38,886 nt of DNA from positions 1-38,886 of IMG/VR virus record IMGVR_UViG_3300035670_000585. One strand, given 5' to 3'. Of the stretch, positions 1 through 38,886 are shown one piece after another. This stretch comes from a virus. Made by a program: the position numbers and the translations under genes. Under the pieces are notes generated by a model. It was not told where the DNA came from and searched no databases. It was given only the letters and a program-made list of their open reading frames with translations. Each line of letters opens with the position of its first letter. The stretch's first letter is position 1.

Positions 1-127
1 AAGCGACCCGGATCCCGTTCCACCATAATTTATATTCTCTTAAAAGGGCGATCATGTCGTCAGGGACTATTGATGTACGTTCAGCACCATTTGTTTTTAA
101 TTCGCCCTCAAATGTGCCTTTTCGCTT
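1..127. repeat. Terminal direct repeat, copy 1 (circular-assembly overlap)
   Basis: Bases 1-127 are identical to 38760-38886. The repeat lies inside the integrase reading frame, so the ends join to give one intact gene. Confidence 0.95.
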
Positions 128-6334: not shown

Positions 6335-7189
6335 ATGGAAGGCTGGATAAAACTTCATCGTAAACTTTTAGAAAATCCAATATTTTTGAAACCTGAATTA
6401 CTTCAATTATTTGTGTATTGTCTTTTGAAAGCCAACCATGAGCCAAACAAGATTATATTCAATAATAAAGAACAGATTATTGAACGCGGTCAATTCATTA
6501 CAGGAAGGGACGTTCTGAGTAATGACTTAAAGCAAAATGGGCGTACTACCTACGATAGACTGAAAATTCTTGAGAACTTGAAAATTATCACCATCAAATC
6601 CAACAACAAATTTAGCCTTGTAAGCATTGTAAATTATGACTTGTACCAGATGAGAGAAGAAGAATCCAACAACAAACCCAACAACCAGCCAACAACCAGC
6701 CAACAACCAGCCAACACAAACAAGAATGATAAGAATGATAAGAATGATAAGAATGATAAGAAGGAGGAGGAAGAAGGGCTCACCAAAATTATCCAGTTTT
6801 ATCAAAACAATTATCTTCAATCAGTAACACAACAAACAGCCGAGGAGATTGGACATATTTTGGATGATGGAATAACACCGGAGCTATTCATTGAAGTTAT
6901 GAAGGATTCCCTTGAACCATCAATCACCCATAAATGGAAATGGACAAGCAAAGTCCTAATAACGGCACATAGCAAAGGAATATTGACAGTAGAGCAGTAC
7001 CAGCAGCACAAAAAGGCAGAGGAATTGAGACGGGAAAAGGAAAAACAACAGAGACAACCGATTCCTTTTAGTCCAAAGCCAAGGATAAAAGCAGAGTTTA
7101 CAGCAGAAGATTGTTGGTTTGAAGTGGGTTCTATTGCTGAAAGATACAAACGGAAAAGAGAGGAGGAGAACAAAATTGACCAGGGATGA
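6335..7189 (+). CDS. Replisome organizer with C-terminal DnaD/DnaB_2-like domain
   Basis: N-terminus GWIKLHRKLLENPIF; C-terminus IIQFYQNNY...KWTSKVLITAHSKGILTVEQY. ATG 6335 follows GAGGTGG. Confidence 0.75.
   Translation: MEGWIKLHRKLLENPIFLKPELLQLFVYCLLKANHEPNKIIFNNKEQIIERGQFITGRDVLSNDLKQNGRTTYDRLKILENLKIITIKSNNKFSLVSIVNYDLYQMREEESNNKPNNQPTTSQQPANTNKNDKNDKNDKNDKKEEEEGLTKIIQFYQNNYLQSVTQQTAEEIGHILDDGITPELFIEVMKDSLEPSITHKWKWTSKVLITAHSKGILTVEQYQQHKKAEELRREKEKQQRQPIPFSPKPRIKAEFTAEDCWFEVGSIAERYKRKREEENKIDQG
6678..6757. repeat. Iteron-like tandem repeats inside the replisome organizer gene (candidate ori)
   Basis: CCAACAACCAG occurs 3 times (6678-6710) plus a partial 4th copy. AAGAATGAT then occurs 4 times (6722-6757). 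Confidence 0.8.
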
Positions 7190-11072: not shown

Positions 11073-11196
11073 CTAAATGGAGTTAGCAGACACAGGATCA
11101 TATGGTCCTGTTATGTTTAGGGAAACGGTACATCACGATGGTAAGCGCAGGGGTGGGAGTGCTGTGATGTAAAGCAAAATTTATTTGAGGTGTTAT

Positions 11197-12396
11197 ATGG
11201 ATTTCAGGAAAATTAACGTAAAAAAACTGATACCGGCAGACTATAACCCAAGAAAAGATTTAAAGCCAGGGGATAAAGAATATGAAAAAATTAAACGGTC
11301 AATAGAGGAGTTTGGATACATTGACCCAATAATTTGCAATAAAGATATGACAGTTGTCGGTGGTCACCAGAGACTTAAAGTATTAAAGGATTTGGGGCAT
11401 ACAGAGGTAGAATGTGTTGTTGTTGACGTGGATAAGACGCGTGAAAAAGCTCTCAATATTGCGCTGAATAAAATTAGCGGCGAGTGGGATTTTGAGGCGT
11501 TAAAGGATTTGTTGCAGGAGATAGACACTGGCGAAATTGATATGGAGTTGACTGGATTTGATATGTCAGAGATAGAAAACCTTATGAGTCAATTTCATGA
11601 TGGAGATGTTAAAGAGGATGATTTTGACGCTGATAAAGCGTTGGAAGAAATAGTCGAGCCGATAACAAGGCGTGGGGATATATGGCAACTTGGACGGAAC
11701 CGGTTAATGTGTGGGGACAGTACACTAAAGAAAGATACAGAAAAGTTACTTGATGGAAATAAGGCTCATATGTGTTTCACTGATCCACCATATAACATAA
11801 ATTATGGAAATATAAAACATCCAAAATTTAAACAAAGAGAAATACAGAACGATAACATGTCAAAACAAGAATTTAAGAAATTTTGTTTTGAATTTACTTC
11901 GAGAATAAAAGAAAATGTTTTAGGTTGCGTATATATGGCAGGCCCTCCGGTCCCGGAGGGCCGAATAATGTTTACTGTTGCAGATGAATTATTGCATTGC
12001 AGTACAACGATTATATGGAACAAAGATCAATTTACTCTTGGCAGAAGCAAATACCAGAACAAATATGAACCCATTTGGTTTGGTTGGGTTGAGAATGGGT
12101 CAAGATTTTCACAAGACAGAACTCTTGTGAATGTTTGGGATATTAAAAGGCCAAAATCAAGCGATCTTCACCCAACAATGAAACCAATAGAACTTGTATC
12201 AAAAGCAATAAATGACGCAAGTTTAAGCGGAGATATAGTTTTAGATTTGTTTGGTGGATCAGGTTCAACACTAATAGCCTGCGAACAAATAAACCGCATC
12301 TGCTACATGATGGAACTGGATGAAAAATATTGCGATGTCATTATAAAGCGTTGGGAAACTTTAACGGGTAAGAAAGCTGAATTGATAAAGGGGTGA
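11197..12396 (+). CDS. ParB-like nuclease domain fused to N6/N4 DNA methyltransferase
   Basis: N-terminus LIPADYNPRK...VVGGHQRLKVLKDLG (ParBc), then FTDPPYNINYG (DPPY) and a C-terminal LDLFGGSGSTLIA (AdoMet motif). Confidence 0.85.
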   Translation: MDFRKINVKKLIPADYNPRKDLKPGDKEYEKIKRSIEEFGYIDPIICNKDMTVVGGHQRLKVLKDLGHTEVECVVVDVDKTREKALNIALNKISGEWDFEALKDLLQEIDTGEIDMELTGFDMSEIENLMSQFHDGDVKEDDFDADKALEEIVEPITRRGDIWQLGRNRLMCGDSTLKKDTEKLLDGNKAHMCFTDPPYNINYGNIKHPKFKQREIQNDNMSKQEFKKFCFEFTSRIKENVLGCVYMAGPPVPEGRIMFTVADELLHCSTTIIWNKDQFTLGRSKYQNKYEPIWFGWVENGSRFSQDRTLVNVWDIKRPKSSDLHPTMKPIELVSKAINDASLSGDIVLDLFGGSGSTLIACEQINRICYMMELDEKYCDVIIKRWETLTGKKAELIKG

Positions 12397-14247: not shown

Positions 14248-16302
14248 GTGGGATTTATAGACAAGTTAATGGGTCAGTTTCAGCGCAAAATGACACAGTA
14301 TACATACCAATGGAACTATGGCAAGCCAGTTTGGGCAACTCAAAAAGATGAGGCATACATACGTGAGGCATATAATAAGGTTGTCTGGGTTTATGCTTGT
14401 GTTGCCATGATTGCCAGTTGCACATCCTCTGTGCCTTGGGTGCTATACCGTAAGCGCGGCGGTAAACTAAACGAGATACCAGATCATCCAATTTTAAACA
14501 TTGTTAACAACAGAGTGAATCCTTGGCTGTCAAGCCGGGACTTTTTTGATTTGTGGGCCACATATTTGGCTCTACAAGGCAAATTTTATGCCGAAATGAA
14601 TAATCCGACAATCCCGACACAATTGTCACCTATTTACCCCCATTTTGTCAGCCCTGTGCCTGATAAAAAACAATTTGTCTCCGGGTTTGAGTTTCAAATG
14701 GGTAGTGACAAAATTATTTACCCGGCTGATTCGGTGATCTGGTCAAAGTTTAATGATCCATTAGATCTTTACCAAGGGTTGTCACCAATCAGGGCAATGG
14801 CGAGAACAATTGACACAGAGAATCAGGCTGTCGATTGGAATAAAACCACATTGCAAAATGCAGCGGTACCACCGGGAGCAATTTCGGCGGTAAACATTTC
14901 ACCAGAGACAAAAGAGAAGCTGCGTGAGGATTGGCTGAATAGGTACGGTGGCTCAAATAATGCTAGGGTGCCATTGCTATTGGATGCTGAGAGGATTCAA
15001 TACACATCCTTTGGACTAAGCCCTGTTGATATGGATTTCTTGAATCAGCGCAAGTTGAACCGCATAGAAATATGTTCGGCTTTTGGTGTGCCTGGTCAGG
15101 TGGTCGGGGATCCAGAGGGACAAACATATGCAAATTATGAGGAGGCACTAAAATCATTCTGGCAAAACACTATAGTGCCGAGGTACCTGGACAACATCAA
15201 ATCTACACTAAATAGTGACTTAGTTGCCAGATACGCGGACAATTTAGTGTTGGATTACAACCTCGATGACATAACCGTCTTACACGAATCAATTGATGCC
15301 ATCTCTGACAGGGTAACAAAATTATTCGTCAACAACATTATAACCAGAGAAGAAGCGAGAGAGGCTTTAGGCTATGAGGCAGAGGCTGACGGCGAATATT
15401 ATGCCGAGGTTGCATCAAAAATATTGCAGGGTGGCAAGACTAATCCGGTGCAAACTGGGGACGATGCTGACCAGAGCCTGACAGAAACAGATGATACCTT
15501 GGACGATGGTGAGACTGACAGAGTAAAAAAAAACTTAAAATCCGTTGACATGACGGAGGAGCAAAAAGCACTCTACTGGAAAGCATACGAGGGCAAGCGG
15601 TCAAAGTATTACAGCCGGCTTGAAAGCAAAGTTAAAGGTTTGTTTGATGATGAGCGCAAAAAAATTTCCAGTGTAGAGGCTGAAACTTATTCGGTATACA
15701 GGGCACAGGTTAATGCGGTGATCAGCAAAGGACAGGTTGATTGGCGAAACACATTGACAGCCGCTTATATTGCCATAATTGACGATTTTGGCTCAGAGGT
15801 TTACAGAGACCTGGAGAGCAAAAAGGCATTTGGTTTCAGTGTTTTTGCACAGGCTATAATGCAGTTCGTTTCATCAACCGTTGCTGAGATGGTGGTCAAT
15901 ATTACTGACACGACAAAGACCCATATTAAGCAGAGGATTGATGAGGGAATAACAGAGGGTATGCCAATCGCTAAAATAGCGAAATGGATTGACAACCTCT
16001 ACCTGGACGAAATTATACCAAACAGGTCAAAGGTTATTGCACAGACAGAGACCATCCGGGCATCAAATTACGGTTCATATGCAGCTGCACAGCAAGCAAG
16101 TTCAAACGTGAAAAAGATATGGATTCCAACCTATGACCAGAGGACACGGGATACGCATTTTGCTATGGGTGCTCATGCTCCTGTTGATATGGACGGATAT
16201 TTTACAGTGGGTGACAGCCGTATGCAGTACCCGGGAGACCCAAACGGGTCAGCAAAGGAGACAATCAACTGTCGGTGTGCAATAGGCTATGTTAGAAAAT
16301 AG
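14248..16302 (+). CDS. Portal protein fused to Mu F / SPP1 gp7-like head morphogenesis domain
   Basis: The N-terminal roughly 430 aa are portal-like. The C-terminus has IAQTETIRASNYG...DQRTRDTHFAMGAH...INCRCAIGY (Phage_Mu_F signature). Confidence 0.8.
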   Translation: MGFIDKLMGQFQRKMTQYTYQWNYGKPVWATQKDEAYIREAYNKVVWVYACVAMIASCTSSVPWVLYRKRGGKLNEIPDHPILNIVNNRVNPWLSSRDFFDLWATYLALQGKFYAEMNNPTIPTQLSPIYPHFVSPVPDKKQFVSGFEFQMGSDKIIYPADSVIWSKFNDPLDLYQGLSPIRAMARTIDTENQAVDWNKTTLQNAAVPPGAISAVNISPETKEKLREDWLNRYGGSNNARVPLLLDAERIQYTSFGLSPVDMDFLNQRKLNRIEICSAFGVPGQVVGDPEGQTYANYEEALKSFWQNTIVPRYLDNIKSTLNSDLVARYADNLVLDYNLDDITVLHESIDAISDRVTKLFVNNIITREEAREALGYEAEADGEYYAEVASKILQGGKTNPVQTGDDADQSLTETDDTLDDGETDRVKKNLKSVDMTEEQKALYWKAYEGKRSKYYSRLESKVKGLFDDERKKISSVEAETYSVYRAQVNAVISKGQVDWRNTLTAAYIAIIDDFGSEVYRDLESKKAFGFSVFAQAIMQFVSSTVAEMVVNITDTTKTHIKQRIDEGITEGMPIAKIAKWIDNLYLDEIIPNRSKVIAQTETIRASNYGSYAAAQQASSNVKKIWIPTYDQRTRDTHFAMGAHAPVDMDGYFTVGDSRMQYPGDPNGSAKETINCRCAIGYVRK

Positions 16303-17010: not shown

Positions 17011-17037
17011 AAACGCCGAAAGTGGGCGTTTTTTTGT
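17011..17037 (+). terminator. Hairpin plus T-run between protease and capsid genes
   Basis: AACGCC-GAAAGTG-GGCGTT followed by TTTTTT. Confidence 0.5.
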
Positions 17038-17066
17038 TGCCCAAAATTTTGAAAGGAGTGTGTCAG

Positions 17067-18293
17067 ATGGAGACTAAAAACAACCAAACGCAGGTTGACG
17101 TTTTGCTTGCTGAGATTAAGGCAATCGCCGAAGGCAAAGCAAACAAAGATGATTACAACAGTAAAATGGCCGAGTTAAAAGAGGCTATGGACAACAGAAA
17201 CAAAGAGGTTGACCGTCAGATTGGTGACGTTGAAACCAAGTTCGAACAGCGCATGGCTAAAATGACAGATTCGATTACAAACGGTTTCAAGGCAGTTCAT
17301 CAGCCTGCAATTGCACCAGAGCAGAAGTATGGTAAGAGCTTTGGTGAGTTCCTGAGAAATGTTAAGTCAAAAGCAATGGAAATTAAGGATTTAGCAGAAG
17401 GAACTGGCGCGTCCGGTGGATACCTGGTGCCTGACCAGTTCATGGCTGAAATTCTTAAGGTAGACCTTGAGCAATCCGTTGTCAGATCCAACGGTGCAAG
17501 AATCATCAACATGACATCAAATAAGCTGATGATCCCGGCACTGGACATGGACACTAATGCAGCCGGTTCAATTTACGGTGGAGTTGCTGCTTATTGGGGC
17601 TCTGAAAATGGGACTATGACAGAAACACAGCCTACTTTCAAGAGGGTTACTCTTGAACCCAAAAAATTATACGGATACTGCGAAGATCCCAACGAACTCG
17701 AAGCTGATGCCATTGTTTCTATGGGCAGCCTGTTAACCCAGATGTTCGGTGAGGTTCTGGCGTTCGAGGAAGATTACGCTTTCTTGACAAACGCAACACC
17801 TGGCAGACCTCAAGGGATTATTACCGCACCTGCTTACATCACAGTAAGCCGCGCAACCTCCTCACAGGTCAACACAACCGACATCATCAACATGATGGCA
17901 AGGTTTAAGGGCAATATGAGCAGAGCAAAATTCTTTGTGAATCAATCTGTTCTGCCTTACATCTATGCACTGCAAGATCCAAATGGTTCATATATTTGGG
18001 CACCTTCAGCAGCTGCAGGATCACCCGGCACCCTGTACGGCAGACCTATTGTCGTAACAGAAAAACTGCCTGCGCTTGGCACAACCGGAGATGTTCTGCT
18101 TGCCGACATGGGATTCTACCTCATCGGTGACAGGGCTGGAATGTCTGTCATGACATCCGAGCATTTCAAATTCCAGAATGACCAGATGGCCTACAGAGTG
18201 ACCAAGAGAGTTGACGGTCAGGTATGGCTTGACAGCGCAATAACACCACGAGCAGGAGGCAGCACTCTGTCACCGTTCGTTGGAATCGGTTAA
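17067..18293 (+). CDS. Major capsid protein, HK97 fold family
   Basis: ATG 17067 follows AAAGGAG. It has an N-terminal coiled delta-like region followed by a capsid body of about 300 aa, in the position after the protease. Confidence 0.85.
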   Translation: METKNNQTQVDVLLAEIKAIAEGKANKDDYNSKMAELKEAMDNRNKEVDRQIGDVETKFEQRMAKMTDSITNGFKAVHQPAIAPEQKYGKSFGEFLRNVKSKAMEIKDLAEGTGASGGYLVPDQFMAEILKVDLEQSVVRSNGARIINMTSNKLMIPALDMDTNAAGSIYGGVAAYWGSENGTMTETQPTFKRVTLEPKKLYGYCEDPNELEADAIVSMGSLLTQMFGEVLAFEEDYAFLTNATPGRPQGIITAPAYITVSRATSSQVNTTDIINMMARFKGNMSRAKFFVNQSVLPYIYALQDPNGSYIWAPSAAAGSPGTLYGRPIVVTEKLPALGTTGDVLLADMGFYLIGDRAGMSVMTSEHFKFQNDQMAYRVTKRVDGQVWLDSAITPRAGGSTLSPFVGIG

Positions 18294-18312: not shown

Positions 18313-18699
18313 ATGAATAAAATCATGGAAGGTATTACTGTTTCTACACAGGTGTTCCCAACGGCTACAACTGGAATCAGCGGATCAGCAACTGTTGACA
18401 TGCTGAACTACCATAAGGCCGTGGCGAAGCTTTTCGCTCACCGTTTGCCTGATGCAAAGGGCGAAGGCGTTATAACATTATCGCTGTACGAACACACCGC
18501 CGCAGCAGCTGCAGGAACTCAGGTTGCTGCATCTGTTGTAACAGGTTCTATCACATCCGCATCAGATGTATACCTTGAGGCAGAAATTGATGCTACAAGC
18601 CTGACCAAACGTTATGTTTATGCCCGTGTCGTGTCTGCAACAGGGACTGTTGTGGCTGCAACAATCGAAAGAGCAGAACCAAGATACGAGCCCGTTTAA
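18313..18699 (+). CDS. Small Ala/Thr/Val-rich head-associated protein (unknown function)
   Basis: 128-aa ORF directly after the capsid gene with SD GAGGGGG. Contains HTAAAAAGTQVAASVVTGS. Confidence 0.6.
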   Translation: MNKIMEGITVSTQVFPTATTGISGSATVDMLNYHKAVAKLFAHRLPDAKGEGVITLSLYEHTAAAAAGTQVAASVVTGSITSASDVYLEAEIDATSLTKRYVYARVVSATGTVVAATIERAEPRYEPV

Positions 18700-18715: not shown

Positions 18716-18769
18716 TGCCGTGGATAGGCTTGCAACCGAAAAGAGGGTTCCTGACCTCCTGCCACGGCA
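18716..18769 (+). other. Conserved hairpin element A (related to element B)
   Basis: The stem TGCCGTGG/CCACGGCA encloses GTGG-a-TAGG...C-GAAAAG-a-G-GTT...CTCC-TGCCAC. It lies in the gap upstream of the first glycosyltransferase. Confidence 0.6.
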
Positions 18770-18815
18770 GACTTTTCAGGAATATATTCAAACACTTACA
18801 GGAGGTGTTTTTTTT

Positions 18816-19709
18816 ATGCAACTTTTTAAAAATATTATTAACTTTTTCATCAAAGTATATTTAAATCAATACAAATCAAAATATTTTGAGTTGTTACAAC
18901 AGCATCAACAATACAAGGCGTTCAAAGATAACGAAATTCAAAATATTAAAAATGTTTTAAGTGCAATTGAAAAAAAACAAAGTGCAGAACAATCAGCAAT
19001 TTCTCCTCTCAATAAAACAACAAATATTTGTATCGGCATCCCCCACATGGGGATATTTCATTGGCAAACACTAAGCGCGCTTTTGTCGCTCAGAGTGCCG
19101 CCAAACTGCGTTATTAAATACCACATGGTTGGCAGTTCGTTGGTATATGAGGCGAGAGACAGCATAGCCAAATTTGCGATTGAAAATGATTGCGATTATG
19201 TGCTTTACCTTGACAGTGACATGGTGCCGCCAAGCGACATGATTATGAAAATGTTAAACACATTCGATCAGCGACCAGAATCGGGGTTGGTGACAGGCAT
19301 GGCATTTAAGCGGATACCACCGTTTCAGCCGTGTTTCTATACTAAAGTTACATACGACACAAAGATGATGAGACCTACACTGGAGAGCCCGATTGAGTTC
19401 CCGGATGAAGGGCTTATTGAGATTCAAGGTTGCGGAATGGCCTGTTGCATGATTAAAACTGAGGTATTCAGACAGGTTGATGCTGAATTGATTGGAGACA
19501 GAAAACATTATTTTTTCCCACTGCCGAACATGGGCGAGGATTTGACGTTCTGCCTAAAAGCAAAGCACAAGGCAATTAAAATGTATGTTGACTTGTCAAT
19601 TGACGTTGGTCATATTTCATCCATGCCAATAGTCAGGGATCATTTCAGGGCATGTTATAACGAATATAAGTCCAAAAACACCTCTGAACCGTTATTTAAG
19701 GAGGTGTAA
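18816..19709 (+). CDS. GT-A fold glycosyltransferase (GT2-like)
   Basis: ATG 18816 follows ACAGGAGG. Has YLDSDM (DxD), GCGMACCMIK and MGEDLTFC. Confidence 0.7.
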   Translation: MQLFKNIINFFIKVYLNQYKSKYFELLQQHQQYKAFKDNEIQNIKNVLSAIEKKQSAEQSAISPLNKTTNICIGIPHMGIFHWQTLSALLSLRVPPNCVIKYHMVGSSLVYEARDSIAKFAIENDCDYVLYLDSDMVPPSDMIMKMLNTFDQRPESGLVTGMAFKRIPPFQPCFYTKVTYDTKMMRPTLESPIEFPDEGLIEIQGCGMACCMIKTEVFRQVDAELIGDRKHYFFPLPNMGEDLTFCLKAKHKAIKMYVDLSIDVGHISSMPIVRDHFRACYNEYKSKNTSEPLFKEV

Positions 19710-20293
19710 TGATGCATATAAAAAAATATTGGGACAGCAGCAGAGACGACTTTTCAAACAGACCTACAATTTTATTTCAGCCTGACCATTTGGGATTCTT
19801 GTCGGAGTGCAAAAAAATAATTGACCTTGGATCTGGCAATGGGATCCTCGTGAACAAATTAAACGAGATGGGACACCAGGCACACGGCATCACATACAAC
19901 CAAGGCGAGGTAAATCAGCGAGTACACCAAAATGTTATATTTGGTGATATGCAGGATATACCGTTTGAGGATGACACTTTTGACGGATTCGTAATGTGGG
20001 ACAGCCTAGAACATTGTCCATCGGCTTATATTGCGCTTTGTGAGGCAAGGCGAGTTGTAAAGGATAATGGCAAAGGCTTAATTTTTATGCCGGGGCTCAA
20101 CTGGTTGAACTGCCATTGCCATATAACATGTTACACTGTGCCACAGATGGAGCAGTTATTTAGACAGTCAGGATGGACACTTAATAAAGTACATGAGAAA
20201 AAATACCCAAACGAGCCAAACAAATACTGTGAGGGCATGGCTGTTTATGAGGTTATAAACGTGCCCGGTTACAAGGCGGTGTTTGAACAATGA
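19709..20293 (+). CDS. Class I SAM-dependent methyltransferase
   Basis: IIDLGSGNGIL (motif I) and FDGFVMWDSLEHC. Its start overlaps the previous stop. Confidence 0.75.
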   Translation: MMHIKKYWDSSRDDFSNRPTILFQPDHLGFLSECKKIIDLGSGNGILVNKLNEMGHQAHGITYNQGEVNQRVHQNVIFGDMQDIPFEDDTFDGFVMWDSLEHCPSAYIALCEARRVVKDNGKGLIFMPGLNWLNCHCHITCYTVPQMEQLFRQSGWTLNKVHEKKYPNEPNKYCEGMAVYEVINVPGYKAVFEQ

Positions 20294-20976
20294 TTCATGG
20301 GATGATGTTGGTCAGAAACGAATCAGGACGCTGGCTTGAGCAAGTGTTAAAACAAATGAACCAAATATGTGACCGTGTTGTTATTCTGGACGATGCCAGT
20401 ACAGACAACACGGTTTCTATTTGCGAGGAGTTTGGCGAGGTATTTAGATCCAATAAACAAAAATGGACAACAAACGAGCTGGAGGCGCGACAAAAACTCT
20501 GGCAGCTAACGACAAACAAAGCAAGCGACAACGATTGGATCCTCTGCCTCGATGCTGATGAATTATTTGTTGACGGGCATATTGATTACATCAAATATTT
20601 ATTTCACGTTTTACCAACAGAGGTTGATGCCGTTGGTTTTAGGTTGCATGACATGTGGTCAGACACTCATTACAGGGATGACCAGTTATGGCAGGCACAT
20701 CGTTATATTTGGCCAATGGCAGTAAGGTATAAGGAGCGGTTCATTTACCACTGGCTGAATAAAAAACTGCATTGCGGACGGTTCCCTGGCAACGCATCAC
20801 AAAAATGTTACCCGACGATGATACCGATAAAGCACATGGGATGGAGCCGAGAGGCTGACAGGATTAAAAAGCACGAAAGATATTTACAGTGTGATCCTGA
20901 CGGTAAAAATGGCATTATGGAGCAGTATATAAGCATTATGGATACCAATCCAACGTTAAAATTGTTTGGTACATAG
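20290..20976 (+). CDS. Family 2 glycosyltransferase
   Basis: MLVRNESGRWLEQVL...VVILDDASTDNT and LCLDADELF. ATGA overlap with the upstream gene. Confidence 0.75.
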   Translation: MIHGMMLVRNESGRWLEQVLKQMNQICDRVVILDDASTDNTVSICEEFGEVFRSNKQKWTTNELEARQKLWQLTTNKASDNDWILCLDADELFVDGHIDYIKYLFHVLPTEVDAVGFRLHDMWSDTHYRDDQLWQAHRYIWPMAVRYKERFIYHWLNKKLHCGRFPGNASQKCYPTMIPIKHMGWSREADRIKKHERYLQCDPDGKNGIMEQYISIMDTNPTLKLFGT

Positions 20977-20982
20977 GCAGTT

Positions 20983-21042
20983 AATTTGTGGCTAGGTCGA
21001 CGGACTGAAAAGGAGTTACCCCCTTTCTCCCTGCCACAAATT
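20983..21042 (+). other. Conserved hairpin element B (related to element A)
   Basis: The 10-bp stem AATTTGTGGC/GCCACAAATT encloses TAGG...C-GAAAAG-GA-GTT...CTCCCTGCCAC. It lies in the gap upstream of the rSAM gene. Confidence 0.6.
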
Positions 21043-21076
21043 TATCTATAAGGGGCTTAACGAAAGGGGCGTTATT

Positions 21077-23101
21077 ATGAATGTTATATTGTGTTACCCA
21101 CCAAAGAGAAATTATCCCGGCTATGGTCAAGACAAAAGATGGTTGCCTTTAGGTATTGCATCACTTGGGGCATATATAAGGCAAGAATTACCGGATTTAA
21201 AAGTGACGTTGCTGGATTTGTTTGAATACAGCATGGATGAGGCTTTTGCAAAAATATTCAAAAGTATTAATCCAGACGACACCAATATATTAGGTTTTAC
21301 TTGTTTCACAGAACAAAGGAATAGTGCTTTTGAGCTATGTAAACGGGTTAAATCAATAAGACTTTTTGATGATTCAATGGCAAAGTATTGGGGAATTGAC
21401 AAAAGCGACTATAATGTTGGTCAAATAATTACTGTCGTTGGTGGACCACACGCTTTTATAATGGCGAATCAAATTGCCGAGCATTACCCTTATATTGACC
21501 ACATCATGAAAGGTGAGGGAGAGCGGTCTATTGTCAACTTAATCAAAAATTATATCGACGGTAGAGAGTCAAAGCGCATTATTGAGGCTGACATAATTCA
21601 TAACCTTGATGAATTACCTCACTGTATAGACGGATTTGACCTATTTGCCAACGTCAGCAATATGGTCGAGGCAGAAGCACCGATTATATTCAGTCGAGGT
21701 TGCACAGATTATTGTTCATTTTGCAGCACGACAAAATTTTGGCATGGATACCGCAGCCGGTCAGCTGAAAACGTATTTGCCGAAATGATGAAATATAACC
21801 AGCGGTATGGGACGACGAAATTTAAATTTCACGATGACGCATCCACCGCAGATTTAGACAACTGGAAACGGTTATGTGGATTCATTGTAGATTATAAATT
21901 TGAATACGAAATAACAGCCAGAGCAGACCAGTTTGACGATGAACTGATTGACTTACTCGCTCGATCTGGATGCAAACGTGTTGCAGTCGGCATTGAATCA
22001 GGCAACGAAAATCTTAGAAATGCCATGAATAAGCGGCTTGACATGGACGTTGCCAAAGCTAACATGAAGAAGCTAATGGCAGCAGGCATCGAGGTTGTAA
22101 TGCTGTTTATTATTGGTTATCCAGGTGAAACAGACGGAACCATACAAGAGACCATCGACCTGATCCGAGAGGTTAAGCCGTCAAGTTGGTGTTGCCAACC
22201 ACTAATGATATTCCCCGGCACAAAAGTTTATCGTGATTGTGTTAAGTCAGGATGGATGAAGGATGATTACTGGCTGCAGGATTTACCACAGCCATACTAC
22301 ATAAAGGATGTACCATTTCGGCAGCTGCAGGAGTGGACAAGACAGGTTCAAACGTGCATGAAAAAAACTAATGTTCTAATAGCTGCACCAGTGCGCCAAA
22401 ATGAGGTCAAATTCAAGCTATACATAGATAGCCTTAATAATTTGACCATACCGGACAATGTAAACGTGCAGCGACTTTTTGTTCTCCACAACAGCGAGCA
22501 TCTGAAACAGTATTTGTCACCAACTGACACCGTTGCAATAGCCAATACAGATGATGATTATATTTGCGATGAAAAGACGCATCAATGGAAGCAGCACAAC
22601 CTCAATTTTGTGGCAAACATCAAAAATCAAATCATAGAAATTGCGGTTAAAAACGGCTTTGACTATGTTTTCTTTGTGGACAGTGACCTGATACTGCATC
22701 CTGATACATTGTCGAATCTGTTGAGCCTTGACCTAGACATCGTGGCAGAAATATTTTGGACAGCTTGGGATCCGGGATCTCCATTGATGCCAAACGCATG
22801 GGATTATGACCACTATAGTTTTCTGCCTGGTACCATTGAAAAGTATAAAACGCCGGGTGTGTACCAATGCGGAGGCACTGGCGCAGCAATATTAATTAAT
22901 CGGCGTGTATTTGATGCAGGAGTAAACTACAACAACATACCAAACCTTTCTATGTGGGGAGAGGACAGGCATTTCAGCATCAGGGCAATGGCAGCAGGAT
23001 ACCCGATACACATTGACACTCATTACCCAGCAGTGCATTTATACAGAGAAAGTGACGTTGAAAAAGTATTAAAGGAGCGTGAACAAATTGCTGACAAGTA
23101 A
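21077..23101 (+). CDS. B12-binding radical SAM enzyme fused to a C-terminal GT-A-like glycosyltransferase domain
   Basis: N-terminus has VVGGPHAF and KGEGERS (cobalamin-binding domain) and GCTDYCSFC (CxxxCxxC). From about aa 430 onward: FVDSDL (DxD), GGTGAAILINRRVF and WGEDRHFS. Confidence 0.75.
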   Translation: MNVILCYPPKRNYPGYGQDKRWLPLGIASLGAYIRQELPDLKVTLLDLFEYSMDEAFAKIFKSINPDDTNILGFTCFTEQRNSAFELCKRVKSIRLFDDSMAKYWGIDKSDYNVGQIITVVGGPHAFIMANQIAEHYPYIDHIMKGEGERSIVNLIKNYIDGRESKRIIEADIIHNLDELPHCIDGFDLFANVSNMVEAEAPIIFSRGCTDYCSFCSTTKFWHGYRSRSAENVFAEMMKYNQRYGTTKFKFHDDASTADLDNWKRLCGFIVDYKFEYEITARADQFDDELIDLLARSGCKRVAVGIESGNENLRNAMNKRLDMDVAKANMKKLMAAGIEVVMLFIIGYPGETDGTIQETIDLIREVKPSSWCCQPLMIFPGTKVYRDCVKSGWMKDDYWLQDLPQPYYIKDVPFRQLQEWTRQVQTCMKKTNVLIAAPVRQNEVKFKLYIDSLNNLTIPDNVNVQRLFVLHNSEHLKQYLSPTDTVAIANTDDDYICDEKTHQWKQHNLNFVANIKNQIIEIAVKNGFDYVFFVDSDLILHPDTLSNLLSLDLDIVAEIFWTAWDPGSPLMPNAWDYDHYSFLPGTIEKYKTPGVYQCGGTGAAILINRRVFDAGVNYNNIPNLSMWGEDRHFSIRAMAAGYPIHIDTHYPAVHLYRESDVEKVLKEREQIADK

Positions 23102-23744
23102 GTTTTTTTATGGCGATGATGAACGATTTGACAGTTTGGATGGTTTTGAGCTGCCATCTGATTGGTGGAGCAGACCGCACGAATATGCCTGGGCAAGTAA
23201 GTTTTTGAAAGACGATGAAATAATAATTGATGCCGGTTGTGGGACAAATCACCCATTCAAGGATTATGCAGCTGCCAGGGTAAAAAAGATTTTTGCAATT
23301 GACAAAGATCCTGCAATCAAACAGTTTAATGACACAGATACATTGATGCACGTCCACAGCGATATTTGCAAGTTGGATGGTGATTTTGCACCGAAATCAA
23401 TTGACAAGGTGTTTTGCATCAGCGTTTTAGAGCACATGTACCCGGTTAACATTGTTGATGCCTTGAAACAATTTAAAACGGTGCTCAAGGATGACGGACA
23501 GATTATATTGACCATGGATTACCCTTATTTGATGCCTGAGACACTTATAAGCTTGGTCAATGATGCAGGTTTATGTTTTGCTGGATCTGTTGACTATGAT
23601 TTTGACAAACACAAGGCAATCAAAGGGTCATACGGAAACTTAAAATGTTACCGGGCAGTATTGTGCAAGCCAGAGGACGAAACAGAAACAAAACCGGTAG
23701 CACCAAAAGAAACTAAGCCAGTTAAACCTAAAAAGACTAAATAG
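23079..23744 (+). CDS. Class I SAM-dependent methyltransferase with Lys/Pro-rich C-terminal tail
   Basis: IIIDAGCGTNH (motif I) and ISVLEHM, with tail ETKPVAPKETKPVKPKKTK. GTG 23079 or TTG 23088 start overlaps the rSAM gene end. Confidence 0.7.
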   Translation: MNKLLTSKFFYGDDERFDSLDGFELPSDWWSRPHEYAWASKFLKDDEIIIDAGCGTNHPFKDYAAARVKKIFAIDKDPAIKQFNDTDTLMHVHSDICKLDGDFAPKSIDKVFCISVLEHMYPVNIVDALKQFKTVLKDDGQIILTMDYPYLMPETLISLVNDAGLCFAGSVDYDFDKHKAIKGSYGNLKCYRAVLCKPEDETETKPVAPKETKPVKPKKTK

Positions 23745-24308: not shown

Positions 24309-24998
24309 TTGGCTAATTGGAACAGGAAAAGCGAAAAACCAGATTTATACCAGCCATATAAACCACAGCAAAATATTAAACTGACACTTGTCACGGGTCC
24401 AACCTTGTCAATTGTAAGCAGGTCTGAGGCTAAAAACTACATCAAAATAGGCACTGACACAACAGATGATTCTCTTGTTGATGATTTGATTGACGCGGCA
24501 ACTAGAATCATTGAAAGTGAAGCTGGTGGCATTGCTATATGTGAACAGACTTGGAAACAAACGCAAACTGGCGGCACTGATGTCATAAAGCTAATGCGGC
24601 AGCCTGTGATTGGCGTACCAACTGTCAGCTATTACGATGACTTTACAACGGTTACGGCCACAAACATTACATATTCATCTTATTTTCGTGTTGTGCAGCC
24701 AAATGTACTTGTACATGTCGATGGTTATTTTGAGGAGGGTCGGGAGCAGGACGGGTATGAGGTTATGTTTAAAGCCGGGATGTTTACGGCGTCAACTTAT
24801 ACCAATTCTGCCGATCAGCGGTTACAAATTTTTAAAACCGCAATTCTCAGAACTATTGCATGGATGTATGAGAACAGAGAGGAATACGTCAATTTTGTCG
24901 GAGAGGGAAAGCTGCAAGTCACTTATGACAATAAAGAACTACCACTTGGGATTAAACGGCTTATAATGCCAGTTCATTCAGGAGAGGGGCTGATATAA
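24309..24998 (+). CDS. Head-tail connector (gp6-like / DNA-packaging QLRG-type)
   Basis: EAKNYIKIGTDTTDDSLVDDLIDAATRIIE matches the gp6-like N-terminal motif. TTG start. Confidence 0.6.
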   Translation: MANWNRKSEKPDLYQPYKPQQNIKLTLVTGPTLSIVSRSEAKNYIKIGTDTTDDSLVDDLIDAATRIIESEAGGIAICEQTWKQTQTGGTDVIKLMRQPVIGVPTVSYYDDFTTVTATNITYSSYFRVVQPNVLVHVDGYFEEGREQDGYEVMFKAGMFTASTYTNSADQRLQIFKTAILRTIAWMYENREEYVNFVGEGKLQVTYDNKELPLGIKRLIMPVHSGEGLI

Positions 24999-33336: not shown

Positions 33337-33585
33337 TTATGCTTGGGGCATTTTTGTTATTCCTGTTTTTATAAATAGTTCCTCGATTGTTTTTATGTCC
33401 GTTTTAATAAAATCATCATTTCCACTTGGACTAACAAGGCATATATCAACCTTATCACGAATCATATCAAACAGTTCATTGGAGTAAAACAACCAACCAA
33501 TCATACCACGATTCTTATTATAAGCGTTTTCAATCGTATCATATAAAAAAACGTGAGCATCCCTATAAAATACTGCTACCATCAT
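33337..33585 (-). CDS. Hypothetical small protein (last gene of accessory operon)
   Basis: 82-aa ORF whose start overlaps the upstream stop within the junction repeat. Confidence 0.55.
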   Translation of the reverse strand: MMVAVFYRDAHVFLYDTIENAYNKNRGMIGWLFYSNELFDMIRDKVDICLVSPSGNDDFIKTDIKTIEELFIKTGITKMPQA

Positions 33586-33875
33586 CCATCCCCCTTCACT
33601 TCTTCAAAAAAACAATCAATTTTACATGCTATGCAAGATCCAGGCTCATCGTAGCAAATACAATCAACATTTAATTGTATATCTTCTATCAAAAATTTCA
33701 GCTTCTGATTCTGCTGGCGTAGTTTTTCGTTTTCATCTTCTATATAATCATATAACTCCTTTGAACCTTCATGGCTCAAACAAGCGACCTTTCTTGATTC
33801 ACAGTCTAATATAATCTGTGCATATATTACCGGTATATCAAATCCGCATATAACGCATTTGTTAGTGTTGTCCAT
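33582..33875 (-). CDS. Small Cys-rich / coiled-coil protein (97 aa), paralog of 34709-34870
   Basis: ATG 33875 overlaps the upstream TGA. Sequence has MDNTNKCVICGFDIPVIYAQIILDC, NEKLRQQNQKL and CIACKIDC, and ends EVKGDG. Confidence 0.6.
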   Translation of the reverse strand: MDNTNKCVICGFDIPVIYAQIILDCESRKVACLSHEGSKELYDYIEDENEKLRQQNQKLKFLIEDIQLNVDCICYDEPGSCIACKIDCFFEEVKGDG

Positions 33876-34282
33876 CACCCATCCCCCTTCACTTCTTTCA
33901 TAAGATTTCTGAATTTCCCGTACTCTACTAAATTTATTTTGCTGTATTTCACCCATTCAAGTGTTTTTTCCAACGCCTCCACCAGCTTCTCATTCTGCTT
34001 GCGAAGTTTATTGACTTCCTTTGTTAATGCTTCAATTATTTCCTTTAGTTCAATATCTTGAAACTCTGAATTAATATCCATTCGATCATCCTCACTTTCT
34101 GGATTCAATTTTTCATCATGCATTACTTTTACAATGTCAGCTATATCAACCGAATATGAGATATTTTTATCAATATCTTTTAAAATCAAATACCCATTTC
34201 TAATTTTCAGAACTCCGCTTTTAAATTCAACATTAAATCCCTTTTTTAATCTCTTTGATTGCTCAAAACGAATATCCATCAT
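33875..34282 (-). CDS. Small coiled-coil protein (135 aa)
   Basis: Contains KEVNKLRKQNEKLVEALEK and ends EVKGDG. ATGA junction. Confidence 0.6.
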   Translation of the reverse strand: MMDIRFEQSKRLKKGFNVEFKSGVLKIRNGYLILKDIDKNISYSVDIADIVKVMHDEKLNPESEDDRMDINSEFQDIELKEIIEALTKEVNKLRKQNEKLVEALEKTLEWVKYSKINLVEYGKFRNLMKEVKGDG

Positions 34283-34542
34283 CCCTCACCCTCGCTTTCT
34301 AATAGTTCAAACGGACTATATGCACACTTCCTGCAATCATTCCAATACTCATACATTTCTGTAATTTTTTGCTTTAATTGTTCATTTTCTTTTTTTAGAT
34401 TATCCATTTCTTTTCCAAGGTTTAATATTCTGTCTAATAAAGTTGGATTATCTCCTCTACATTGCGACAAATCCGCACATAAATTACATGGAAACCCAAC
34501 CGTATTTGGATATTTACCAAAACATTCTCTTTTATCCATCAT
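34279..34542 (-). CDS. Small Cys-rich / coiled-coil protein (87 aa)
   Basis: Contains CFGKYPNTVGFPCNLCADLSQC and MDNLKKENEQLKQK, and ends ESEGEG. Confidence 0.6.
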   Translation of the reverse strand: MMDKRECFGKYPNTVGFPCNLCADLSQCRGDNPTLLDRILNLGKEMDNLKKENEQLKQKITEMYEYWNDCRKCAYSPFELLESEGEG

Positions 34543-34712
34543 CCCTCACCCTCGCTTTCATTTAGTTTTGTGTCTATAAAATTTTTATTAAATATATAAA
34601 AATCTGTGCAATTCATAGGGTTTGGTTCACAGTCTTTCTTTCTACCACTGCATTCCTTGCAACACTCCATTGATTTCGGTTGATGTGGAAATTCTGATAA
34701 TTTAACTTTCAT
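34539..34712 (-). CDS. Small Cys-rich protein (57 aa, not in ORF track)
   Basis: Translated by hand as MKVKLSEFPHQPKSMECCKECSGRKKDCEPNPMNCTDFYIFNKNFIDTKLNESEGEG. Both ends are ATGA junctions. Confidence 0.5.
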   Translation of the reverse strand: MKVKLSEFPHQPKSMECCKECSGRKKDCEPNPMNCTDFYIFNKNFIDTKLNESEGEG

Positions 34713-34870
34713 CCCTCACCCTCGCTTTCTTCGATGTAGTCTGACAGTTCCTTTGTTCCCTCATGACATAAACAGGCAACTTTTCCTGATTTATAGTCTA
34801 ATATAATCTGTGCATATGCTACTGGTATATCAAATCCGCATATAACGCATTTGTTAGTGTTATCCATCAT
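34709..34870 (-). CDS. Small Cys-rich protein (53 aa, not in ORF track), paralog of 33582-33875 N-terminus
   Basis: Translated by hand as MMDNTNKCVICGFDIPVAYAQIILDYKSGKVACLCHEGTKELSDYIEESEGEG. Confidence 0.5.
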   Translation of the reverse strand: MMDNTNKCVICGFDIPVAYAQIILDYKSGKVACLCHEGTKELSDYIEESEGEG

Positions 34871-35052
34871 CCATCACCCTCGCTTTCTTCTGGAACAAAA
34901 ACAGTATTTACTTCTTCATAGTCAGATTCGTTAAATTTTTCTTGACAAGCTATGCAAATAAATCTTTCTCCAGTCCATGAAATTGAATAATAATTTCCCT
35001 TCACAAAGAAGATTTTATCTGATTCGCAATTTGGGCATATTAACTTAATCAT
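34867..35052 (-). CDS. Small zinc-ribbon protein (61 aa)
   Basis: Contains CPNC...CIAC and ends ESEGDG. Confidence 0.55.
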   Translation of the reverse strand: MIKLICPNCESDKIFFVKGNYYSISWTGERFICIACQEKFNESDYEEVNTVFVPEESEGDG

Positions 35053-38379: not shown

Positions 38380-38886
38380 TCATTTGGCTTGTTTTTCTCT
38401 GTTTTTCAAAAGTGCGTTCTCCATTTTTATTGAAACCTCGGCTGACTTTTCTTTGACCTTGTGTCTATACTTTTGAATAATCATTTGAGTGGATGCGTGC
38501 CCAGCATCATCTGCTATTGTACCAAAATCTAAACCAGATTCAACCAAAATTGAAATATGCAAATGCCTGAGGCCATGAAAGTTTAAATGGGGGAGCTGCA
38601 GTTTTTGTTTTTGCTCTGCTGTCATCTCTGGATCAGCAAGAATCTTTTTATTGATTCGCTGAATGAATTTTGGAAACCATGACGATATTGTGTCAACGTG
38701 CATAGGCTTACCGCTCCACTGGATGAAAAGGTTATCTGTATTGTGCCATTTTTGACCACAAGCGACCCGGATCCCGTTCCACCATAATTTATATTCTCTT
38801 AAAAGGGCGATCATGTCGTCAGGGACTATTGATGTACGTTCAGCACCATTTGTTTTTAATTCGCCCTCAAATGTGCCTTTTCGCTT
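38380..38886 (-). CDS. int: Tyrosine integrase, C-terminal catalytic part
   Basis: Contains HGLRHLHIS (HxxR) and GHASTQMIIQKYRH (His plus catalytic Tyr). It continues upstream into 1-883, giving a joined length of 1263 nt (420 aa). Confidence 0.9.
   Translation of the reverse strand, partial: KRKGTFEGELKTNGAERTSIVPDDMIALLREYKLWWNGIRVACGQKWHNTDNLFIQWSGKPMHVDTISSWFPKFIQRINKKILADPEMTAEQKQKLQLPHLNFHGLRHLHISILVESGLDFGTIADDAGHASTQMIIQKYRHKVKEKSAEVSIKMENALLKNREKQAK
38760..38886. repeat. Terminal direct repeat, copy 2 (circular-assembly overlap)
   Basis: Exact copy of 1-127. Confidence 0.95.

Follow-up and report, generated by a model that had tools for sequence, protein, structure and literature searches.

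The window analysed here is the whole of IMG/VR virus record IMGVR_UViG_3300035670_000585 (positions 1 to 38,886, 38,886 nucleotides), and the subject of this analysis is one gene within it that joins a radical S-adenosylmethionine (SAM) module of the cobalamin (B12)-binding type to a glycosyltransferase (GT) domain of the GT-A fold. The gene and its parts are as follows.

21077..23101, + strand: fusion gene, ATG start, 674 amino acids (aa), one stop only, which is the terminal one
21077..21646, + strand: residues 1–190, predicted cobalamin-binding-type Rossmann domain with GGPH at 122–125 and GEGE at 146–149
21647..22357, + strand: residues 191–427, radical SAM core and C-terminal helices
22358..23098, + strand: residues 428–674, GT-A glycosyltransferase domain, beginning at M428

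An earlier sequence-only reading had singled out this gene because of short motifs, every one of which was located in the translation: VVGGPHA (residues 120–126), KGEGER (145–150), CTDYCSFC (209–216), FVDSDL (533–538), GGTGA (599–603) and GEDR (628–631). Three Pfam domains are found above their gathering cut-offs in the chain, namely Radical_SAM (PF04055, 101.7 bits against 29.5, residues 203–363), B12-binding (PF02310, 33.4 bits against 32.1, residues 116–155) and Anp1/GT62 (PF03452, 32.3 bits against 28.8, residues 416–582), together with weak GT2 matches at residues 513–668. An AlphaFold2 model of the fusion built from 36 family members has a mean predicted local distance difference test (pLDDT) score of 90.7 and a predicted template modelling (pTM) score of 0.80. 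The latter suggests that the two domains (430 and 245 residues) hold a defined mutual arrangement, and this was the packing check that the earlier reading had proposed. The three Pfam domains, the model and the Foldseek matches to both halves described below bear out its claim that a class-B-type radical SAM module and a GT-A domain reside in one chain. Across an alignment of 36 fused sequences, neither half varies at its catalytic residues, and it is highly probable, as predicted from this conservation, that both halves are catalytically competent.

The two halves of the fusion and their junction

The CxxxCxxC motif of the N-terminal half is formed by C209, C213 and C216 (nt 21701–21724) and does not vary among 36 fused and 6 unfused sequences. 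Further motifs of the radical SAM core are GIESG (residues 305–309) and a conserved DDYWLxDxPQPYY segment (396–408). The cluster motif, a partial TIM-barrel core and Foldseek probabilities of 1.00 to several radical SAM structures place this half in the radical SAM superfamily. The family profile matches AprD4 (E 8.5e-24, core only), OxsB (2.4e-17, Rossmann domain and core), QCMT (9CCB, 2.6e-16) and TsrM (3.8e-6) in the PDB, and a single-sequence search also finds the radical SAM core of AprD4 (E 4e-17). Foldseek with the N-terminal half retrieved AprD4, OxsB, QCMT (2.8e-16), TsrM, TokK, CysS and MiaB, among which AprD4 superposes best on the core (root-mean-square deviation (rmsd) 4.8 Å, template modelling (TM) score 0.68).

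AprD4, a sugar 1,2-diol dehydratase, lies in the similarity network of the B12-dependent radical SAM enzymes yet does not bind cobalamin (PMC12931638), and for this reason the N-terminal domain (residues 1–195) was profiled alone. The profile matches the cobalamin domain of OxsB (E 3.3e-7) and that of TokK (0.019) over the same GGPH...GEGE segment, whereas AprD4 is not matched. The matched domains of OxsB and TokK hold cobalamin in their crystal structures. In the model, the domain consists of five strands (residues 2–7, 42–47, 70–75, 117–122 and 142–145) and five main helices, and an N-terminal Rossmann domain of five β-strands and five α-helices defines structural class I of the B12-dependent radical SAM enzymes (PMC12931638). 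The PF02310 match, the OxsB and TokK profile matches and the layout of the model all indicate a homologous domain here. By homology the module is a class-B-type radical SAM module, and its use of cobalamin is predicted. Its best partial matches in NCBIfam are ApyD, HpnJ, PhpK, BchE, rSAM_ocin_1 and a ladderane enzyme, all far under their cut-offs. Membership of the AprD4 family (NF033070) was rejected at 71 bits against a cut-off of 500, with residues 206–397 alone aligning. The representative library also contains giant proteins of 1500–2300 aa (P0121–P0131) with 3–4 tandem B12-type radical SAM modules related to that of the fusion.

The C-terminal half carries the core GT-A motifs, which follow one another as DxD, G-loop, xED and C-His, with the catalytic base residing in xED at the start of helix alpha-F (Taujale et al., PMC7185993). 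DxD is present as D535-S-D537 (nt 22679–22687), the G-loop at residues 599–603 (nt 22871–22885), xED at 628–630 (nt 22958–22966) and C-His as H654 (nt 23036–23038). D535/D537, G599-G-T-G602, E629-D630 and H654 are all invariant in the 36 sequences, and E629-D630 opens helix 629–639 of the model, which is the alpha-F position. Because all four motifs are intact on a GT-A fold, the domain is predicted to be an inverting, metal-dependent enzyme, and sugar transfer by this half is a well supported prediction.

Foldseek matches of the GT half over about 245 columns are COLGALT1 (2e-12, rmsd 4.3 Å), the GT domain of LH3 (3.5e-9), RmlT (1e-7), Mnn9 (4e-7) and TarP (7e-7), with a further match to ppGalNAcT-2; its profile finds COLGALT1 (1.2e-7) and Mnn9 (0.013) in the PDB. 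These matches uphold the glycosyltransferase fold, for which the earlier reading had asked for profile searches. The PF03452 match covers only profile positions 6–189 of 263, and by fold Mnn9 comes after COLGALT1, LH3 and RmlT; since the Anp1/GT62 match is partial, the domain is assigned to GT-A in general and not to GT62. The matched region of COLGALT1 (chain residues ~12–165) is its GT1 domain, which is non-catalytic and lacks the catalytic base (PMC12003778), whereas the fusion keeps xED. Assignment to GT25, the COLGALT1 type, was rejected, as the matches fall on GT1 and not on GT2, which is the catalytic domain and has the EDD motif.

The fusion is rare. A homologue search over 5.8 billion protein clusters gave 37 further full-length homologues (37–63% identity, 646–737 aa), each an uninterrupted chain without a linker, from JGI, ENA, Logan and NCBI assemblies with contigs mostly of 20–57 kb. 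In a HMMER scan of 1.84 billion representatives at 50% identity, only 2 proteins match the profile end to end. The fusion was absent from 185,579 species genomes, where the GT half alone turned up, and from 50,697 deposited phage records (tblastn; best match 52% query coverage, 22% identity). IMG/VR contains 10 fused loci and 1 unfused locus. The phage is known from metagenomes only, and a search for close cultured relatives through the major capsid protein (MCP) found none, the best match having 39% identity over part of the MCP. No NCBIfam family model is reached by the fusion, and its PHROG matches are to families without known function. The earlier statement that this architecture has no characterised member agrees with these results.

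The close orthologues that consist of the radical SAM part only (43–50% identity, 408–489 aa) end at window residue ~428–430. Stand-alone homologues of the GT-A part start with MKKVLIAAPVRQN, and the fusion reads C427-M428-KKTNVLIAAPVRQN at its junction, which together place the boundary where the sequence-only reading had put it (about 430 plus 240 aa). No strong ribosome-binding site is left ahead of M428 (22358–22360), and M428 is, as read from this comparison, a relic start codon. Because the starts of the stand-alone GT-A proteins match from M428 onward, the fusion would have arisen by read-through of the radical SAM gene into the GT start codon, with loss of the upstream stop and without acquisition of a linker.

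The position of an ATG exactly at the junction, and the existence of stand-alone homologues for each half, could also be expected if an assembly or sequencing error had masked a stop or frameshift between two genes; however, the chance of such an artefact is practically nil, as 37 further homologues from four data sources keep one frame without a linker, conservation is similar in both halves, the halves are packed in the model and M428 lacks a strong ribosome-binding site. The conserved full-length homologues from independent assemblies therefore leave room neither for chance nor for a misassembly or a hidden stop, the last of which the earlier reading had named as a result that would refute its claim. 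We regard the fusion as virtually certain to be real.

The head-module island and its relatives

The two ends of the window (1–127 and 38760–38886) are an identical 127-nt direct repeat, and the window is therefore a circular assembly and a complete phage genome of 38,759 bp. It is the genome of a temperate siphophage. In gene order, RecE/RecT, DnaD-like loader, DNA methyltransferases, tRNA-Thr and the small and large terminase subunits come first, followed by portal-MuF fusion, S78 protease, HK97-type MCP, head-tail adaptor, head closure, tail tube, tape measure and endolysin. The features that surround the fusion gene, and the integrase fragment, are the following.

17022..18293, + strand: major capsid protein of the HK97 type, which bounds the island upstream and is a candidate acceptor
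18313..18699, + strand: 128-aa protein (p128), always between the MCP and the island, beta-sandwich model
18717–18781, + strand: second match to the Rfam int-alpA RNA motif (RF02996), 40.6 bits against a cut-off of 35.8, directly upstream of the first GT gene of the island
18816..19709, + strand: GT-A paralogue, first GT of the island, 23% identity to the C-terminal domain of the fusion (E 2e-8)
19709..20293, + strand: class I SAM methyltransferase MT1 (Methyltransf_11), kept in all related islands
20290..20976, + strand: GT2-family glycosyltransferase (Glycos_transf_2 / Glyco_tranf_2_4), conserved in related islands
20985..21054, + strand: int-alpA motif match (RF02996), 56.8 bits (cut-off 35.8), located in the gap of 100 nt that immediately precedes the fusion gene
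23079..23744, + strand: class I SAM methyltransferase MT2, with a 23-nt overlap with the 3' end of the fusion gene
24309..24998, + strand: head-tail adaptor, downstream boundary of the island
38380–38814, − strand: integrase fragment at the contig end, beside the circular junction

The island thus delimited encodes a single radical SAM domain, of the B12 type, along with three GT domains and a pair of class I methyltransferases. All on one strand, its genes overlap or are separated by short gaps, and a scan for promoter- and terminator-like sites gave counts equal to the shuffled expectation, without enrichment. The ATG at 18816, located behind AGGAGG (18800–18805) and giving a first GT of 297 aa, is probably the true start of that gene, and not the listed GTG at 18720, which overlaps the int-alpA-like element. 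No transmembrane segment was found in any island protein, and a Gtr-type membrane glycosylation system is excluded on this ground. The island is followed by a 181-aa protein (p181) to which the annotation assigns no function.

The 128-aa protein has 54 homologous clusters, none of which carries a name, and no Pfam or PHROG family. Its model, of medium confidence (pLDDT 73.7), shows a beta-sandwich that weakly matches (E ~2e-4, TM ~0.5) the TNF-like trimeric fucose lectins BC2L-C-N and PLTL as well as viral jelly-roll protrusion domains. It may, going by the model, be a capsid decoration or lectin-like protein and is a candidate acceptor. Serine and threonine together make up a moderate 20–24% of p128, p181 and the tail tube. 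Collagen-like G-X-Y repeats were absent from the structural proteins of the window.

Both int-alpA matches are intergenic, and a U-rich stretch near the end of each leads into a terminal AGG(G/A) that resembles a Shine-Dalgarno sequence. Described near integrase and alpA genes, the motif has, to our knowledge, no known function. It was found in none of nine related loci (L001–L006 at the gathering threshold; L003, L035 and L041 at an E-value threshold). The gap upstream of the fusion gene holds no SAM or cobalamin riboswitch.

Comparison of the window proteins by tblastn with 17 related loci shows the island between the MCP-p13x pair and the head-tail adaptor in all ten fused loci in which both flanks are visible. 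The order MCP, p13x, GT-A paralogue, GT2, MT1, fusion, MT2, adaptor is found in nine of the ten; in the remaining one (L005), MT1 precedes GT2 and the paralogue was not detected. The MCPs of these phages are merely 39–56% identical. Island position and gene set are conserved, and are restricted to phages. In the window and 10 related loci, GT and methyltransferase genes cluster with structural genes, as would be the case for a virion-directed island.

Other loci contain the parts in different arrangements. In L001, L002 and L046, an unfused radical SAM gene (about 44–48% identity) directly follows a gene for a ~1000-aa multi-GT protein that holds a homologue of the island GT2, and homologues of MT1 and MT2 are present downstream. 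L001 (9340–11337) and L002 (4609–6606) additionally encode, beside the unfused radical SAM gene, a FabG-like short-chain dehydrogenase/reductase (SDR), a DUF2284 protein (predicted metal-binding) and a sugar-1-phosphate nucleotidylyltransferase. A 301-aa protein beside the unfused gene in L001 was compared with the missing GT half and has no similarity to it. In L047, which belongs to the same lineage, an Anp1-like GT is encoded downstream of the MCP, and the radical SAM gene lies ~4 kb further, directly upstream of the tail-tube gene; the radical SAM-only orthologue in L006 is likewise located immediately upstream of the tail-tube gene. In L049 and L050, from a related phage, the same island position is occupied by a GT2-GT-A fusion (P0143) and a methyltransferase without a radical SAM gene. 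The same GT-A subfamily is fused elsewhere to the GT2 type of the island in both orders, and P0139 joins a class I methyltransferase, a GT2 and a GT-A domain in one chain. These independent GT-A, GT2 and methyltransferase fusions indicate that the genes form one glycan-building module, of which the radical SAM enzyme is, judged from the sequences compared, an optional tailoring component.

The nearest cellular homologues of the GT half (36–43% identity) are the N-terminal halves of chromosomal two-GT proteins of Bacillota. Two of them, in L009 (9998–11548, Terribacillus) and L024 (9974–11893, Metaclostridioides mangenotii), are non-prophage proteins with ~40% identity to the GT domain of the fusion, and their genes adjoin a SAM methyltransferase or UDP-GlcNAc 2-epimerase gene. 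This context may represent the source pathway of the phage island and may point to a Bacillota host.

Several other observations were made in the window and its relatives. MT1, MT2 and the nucleotidyltransferase of L001 and L002 have weak NCBIfam matches to the 'DVU_1556' and 'DVU_1551' families, and one NCBIfam model describes DUF2284 fused to an arsenite methyltransferase. The portal is fused to MuF in the window (14248–16302, 684 aa), while the relatives L003–L005 keep the two as separate genes. Just upstream of the terminase (11185–12396), another fusion combines a ParB-N domain with an N6/N4 DNA methyltransferase. Inside the gene for the DnaD-like helicase loader, a 9-nt tandem repeat, AAGAATGAT, is present in ~5 copies (6713–6774) and encodes a K-N-D peptide repeat. 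A family of 39–45-nt repeats (CCATCATCC(C/A)TCACCCTCGCTTTC...) occupies the minus-strand region 33579–34908, which has low GC and inverted skew, where its copies mark the 5' end of several small open reading frames (ORFs) on the minus strand, and a 162-nt repeat is found at 33736–33897 and 34728–34889 with 81% identity. This arrangement is suggestive of a duplication of small genes or of regulatory sites in a lysogeny or accessory arm. Two related phages have the RAGATH-18 RNA motif in their tail modules (L004 12056–12123, 68.5 bits; L005 16270–16337, 72.7 bits; cut-off 44.9).

Function of the fusion and alternative explanations

We propose that the fusion is a bifunctional tailoring glycosyltransferase in a soluble, late-expressed virion-glycosylation island, a reading to which, taken as a whole, we give a little less than an even chance. 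A role in glycan assembly is likely. That the glycan is attached to a virion protein has a slightly better than even chance, as argued from gene position and from better known phage and virus systems. Methylation as the radical step is possible, with a chance clearly below even. We infer the sugar, the use of cobalamin and the type of reaction from homology and gene content. During particle assembly in the cytoplasm, the island would furnish a virion protein with a short methylated glycan, the acceptor being one or more of the capsid, the beta-sandwich protein of 128 aa and the tail tube. The GT-A domain would move a sugar from a nucleotide sugar in a metal-dependent, inverting reaction. The N-terminal module would use its [4Fe-4S] cluster and the 5'-deoxyadenosyl radical derived from SAM to alter an unactivated carbon of the same sugar, either on the nucleoside diphosphate (NDP)-sugar ahead of transfer or, afterwards, on the glycan. 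Cobalamin-mediated C-methylation would be the likeliest reaction; the cobalamin-dependent radical SAM enzymes GenK and GenD1 C-methylate sugars.

Known systems provide precedents for parts of this proposal. The class I B12-dependent radical SAM enzymes (TokK, TsrM, OxsB, QCMT/MgmA) share with the fusion the five-stranded Rossmann domain and the GGPH...GEGE segment followed by a CxxxCxxC TIM-barrel core. However, none of them has a glycosyltransferase domain or is known from a virus structural module, and for the fusion the use of cobalamin is a prediction. The tandem GTs and O-methyltransferase of mycobacteriophage islands (Cluster O, F1 and others), likewise from siphophages, resemble the island in gene content, and their hosts are aerobic actinobacteria; these islands modify capsid and tail-tube proteins according to Freeman 2023, as cited in PMC11600133. 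Chlorovirus PBCV-1 encodes a GT-GT-methyltransferase enzyme, A064R, which is a viral multidomain protein that builds a capsid N-glycan by combining sugar transfer with tailoring, and a separate second methyltransferase, A061L, which parallels MT1 and MT2 (PMC9614988). In contrast to the fusion, the tailoring domain of A064R is a class I O-methyltransferase and its host is eukaryotic, and the likeness is one of proposed function. The Bacillota two-GT proteins and the phage protein P0143 belong to the same GT-A subfamily (36–43% identity) and are fused to the GT2 type that the window encodes separately, but their partner is a second GT, or a methyltransferase plus a GT, and never a radical SAM domain. 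For the mycobacteriophage glycosylation islands, we know of no report of a radical SAM component. The component chemistries and virus-encoded multidomain glycan-tailoring enzymes are already known, and the fusion is a rare architecture without a characterised member.

Several results weigh against the proposal. The best solved match to the radical SAM core is the cobalamin-independent dehydratase AprD4, and the partial NCBIfam matches mix B12-dependent radical SAM enzymes that modify peptides, lipids and phosphonates. By structure, the GT half is matched best by a domain that is not catalytic, GT1 of COLGALT1, and soluble GT-A enzymes of similar fold act on teichoic acid (TarP, RmlT) or on DNA. 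Searches for the substrate class of MT1 and MT2 (sugar or protein) gave only weak generic matches. The unfused clusters of L001, L002 and L046 are not flanked by head genes like those of the window, and we infer the acceptor from gene position and analogy only.

These points also bear on what the sequence-only reading had said of the function. Its description of such enzymes as methylases is not established, the nearest solved core being that of a diol dehydratase without cobalamin. The channelling between sugar transfer and radical chemistry that it had drawn from the fusion goes beyond the comparison of loci, in which radical SAM orthologues exist unfused, that of L047 lies ~4 kb from its GT, and one related phage island has none. 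Its allusion to aminoglycoside pathways does not suit a gene that belongs to a phage head-module glycosylation island.

The first alternative, which is unlikely but the most probable of the rivals, keeps the island and its role in glycan assembly and assigns to the radical SAM half a non-methylating reaction, such as an AprD4-like 1,2-diol dehydration giving a keto- or deoxy-sugar, an epimerisation or an OxsB-like rearrangement, with the product handed to or taken from the GT-A half. AprD4 (apramycin biosynthesis, PDB 6FD2), which acts on a sugar, is both the top match by sequence and profile and the best superposition, and the unfused orthologue of L001 and L002 is directly followed by an SDR, an arrangement that resembles the dehydratase-reductase pair AprD4/AprD3. 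The best match of the N-terminal domain, OxsB, is itself a B12-dependent radical SAM enzyme that does not methylate. However, the alignment to the AprD4 family model is limited to the core at a score far below the cut-off, and the island of the window has no SDR for reducing a keto product. The N-terminal domain matches true cobalamin binders, OxsB and TokK, whereas that of AprD4 is only remotely Rossmann-like (PMC12931638).

It is rather improbable that the island modifies a glycopolymer of the host envelope, such as wall teichoic acid, and thereby acts in lysogenic conversion or superinfection exclusion as the prophage enzyme TarP does. The phage is temperate, the GT-A half resembles TarP and RmlT (E ~1e-7), its nearest cellular homologues are chromosomal Bacillota proteins encoded beside a SAM methyltransferase or UDP-GlcNAc 2-epimerase, and the island proteins are all soluble like enzymes of the TarP type. 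Conversion genes, however, are usually located near lysogeny or lysis modules, while this island stays in the late head operon even though the MCPs have diverged to ~40% identity. Its overlapping junctions and the lack of enrichment of promoters and terminators of its own also argue against a host-directed function, as does the position of radical SAM-only orthologues beside the tail-tube gene.

Improbable to much the same degree, or slightly more so, is that the acceptor protein is what the radical SAM half modifies, either by C-methylating a side chain in the manner of Mmp10 and QCMT, which modify methyl-coenzyme M reductase (MCR), or by making or activating the residue that the GT-A half then glycosylates. 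QCMT, a protein glutamine C-methyltransferase, is a strong match by profile and by Foldseek, and the top NCBIfam partial matches include ApyD and rSAM_ocin_1, which act on peptides that are made by the ribosome and modified after translation (RiPPs). The structures nearest to the GT half are the collagen hydroxylysine GTs COLGALT1 and LH3, and in L006 and L047 the radical SAM-only gene lies directly upstream of the tail-tube gene and the GT elsewhere. LH3 (PLOD3) and mimivirus L230, both lysyl hydroxylase-GTs, are precedents in which a substrate-modifying oxidoreductase is fused to a GT-A domain, but their partner domain is a dioxygenase that uses O2, Fe and 2-oxoglutarate. An anaerobic counterpart of these enzymes, in which the radical SAM half would functionalise a side-chain carbon of a virion protein without oxygen and the GT-A half would then glycosylate the site, is very improbable in our view; we know of no radical SAM protein hydroxylase of this kind, which counts against it. 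The structural proteins of the window also lack a collagen-like or other repeat acceptor, the unfused clusters pair the radical SAM gene with NDP-sugar enzymes and multi-GT proteins, and the COLGALT1 match is to a non-catalytic domain.

The prospect that the island hypermodifies the phage DNA, with the radical SAM half replacing a TET/5mYOX enzyme on a methylated base without oxygen and the GT-A half glycosylating the product, is slight. Some GTs of phage DNA are GT-A enzymes that carry DxD and ED motifs and have TarP as their top PDB match (bioRxiv 10.1101/2023.12.21.572611), the window encodes two DNA methyltransferases, and fragments of a C5-methylase gene lie just upstream of the unfused radical SAM gene in L001 and L002. 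However, DNA-glycosylation pathways place a GT beside a 5-methylpyrimidine dioxygenase or hydroxymethylase, whereas the genes that flank this one are head genes, and no 5mYOX/TET, ThyS-type hydroxymethylase or base-kinase gene is present among the annotated ORFs of the window. The island is in the head module and not in the replication module, its methyltransferases are of the small-molecule Methyltransf_11 type, and the cellular homologues of the GT half occur outside DNA-modification contexts. The paper on the DNA-GT pathways does not mention radical SAM enzymes (bioRxiv 10.1101/2023.12.21.572611).

If the virion-glycosylation reading is correct, the fusion would be the first radical SAM enzyme, probably B12-dependent, to be linked with the glycosylation of virus particles, as well as the first to be fused to a glycosyltransferase. 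Protein-linked glycans would then join antibiotics, lipids, cofactors and peptides as targets of B12-radical SAM chemistry, and phages would display sugars altered at unactivated carbons, which is difficult by other routes. Virion glycans affect the recognition of therapeutic phages by antibodies (Freeman 2023, as cited in PMC11600133), and new tailoring chemistries would be relevant to phage engineering. As a compact protein of 674 aa, the enzyme would be tractable for enzymology, and the fused, adjacent, separated and absent forms of the radical SAM gene in these phages would provide a natural series for testing what fusion adds to a two-step tailoring of a glycan.

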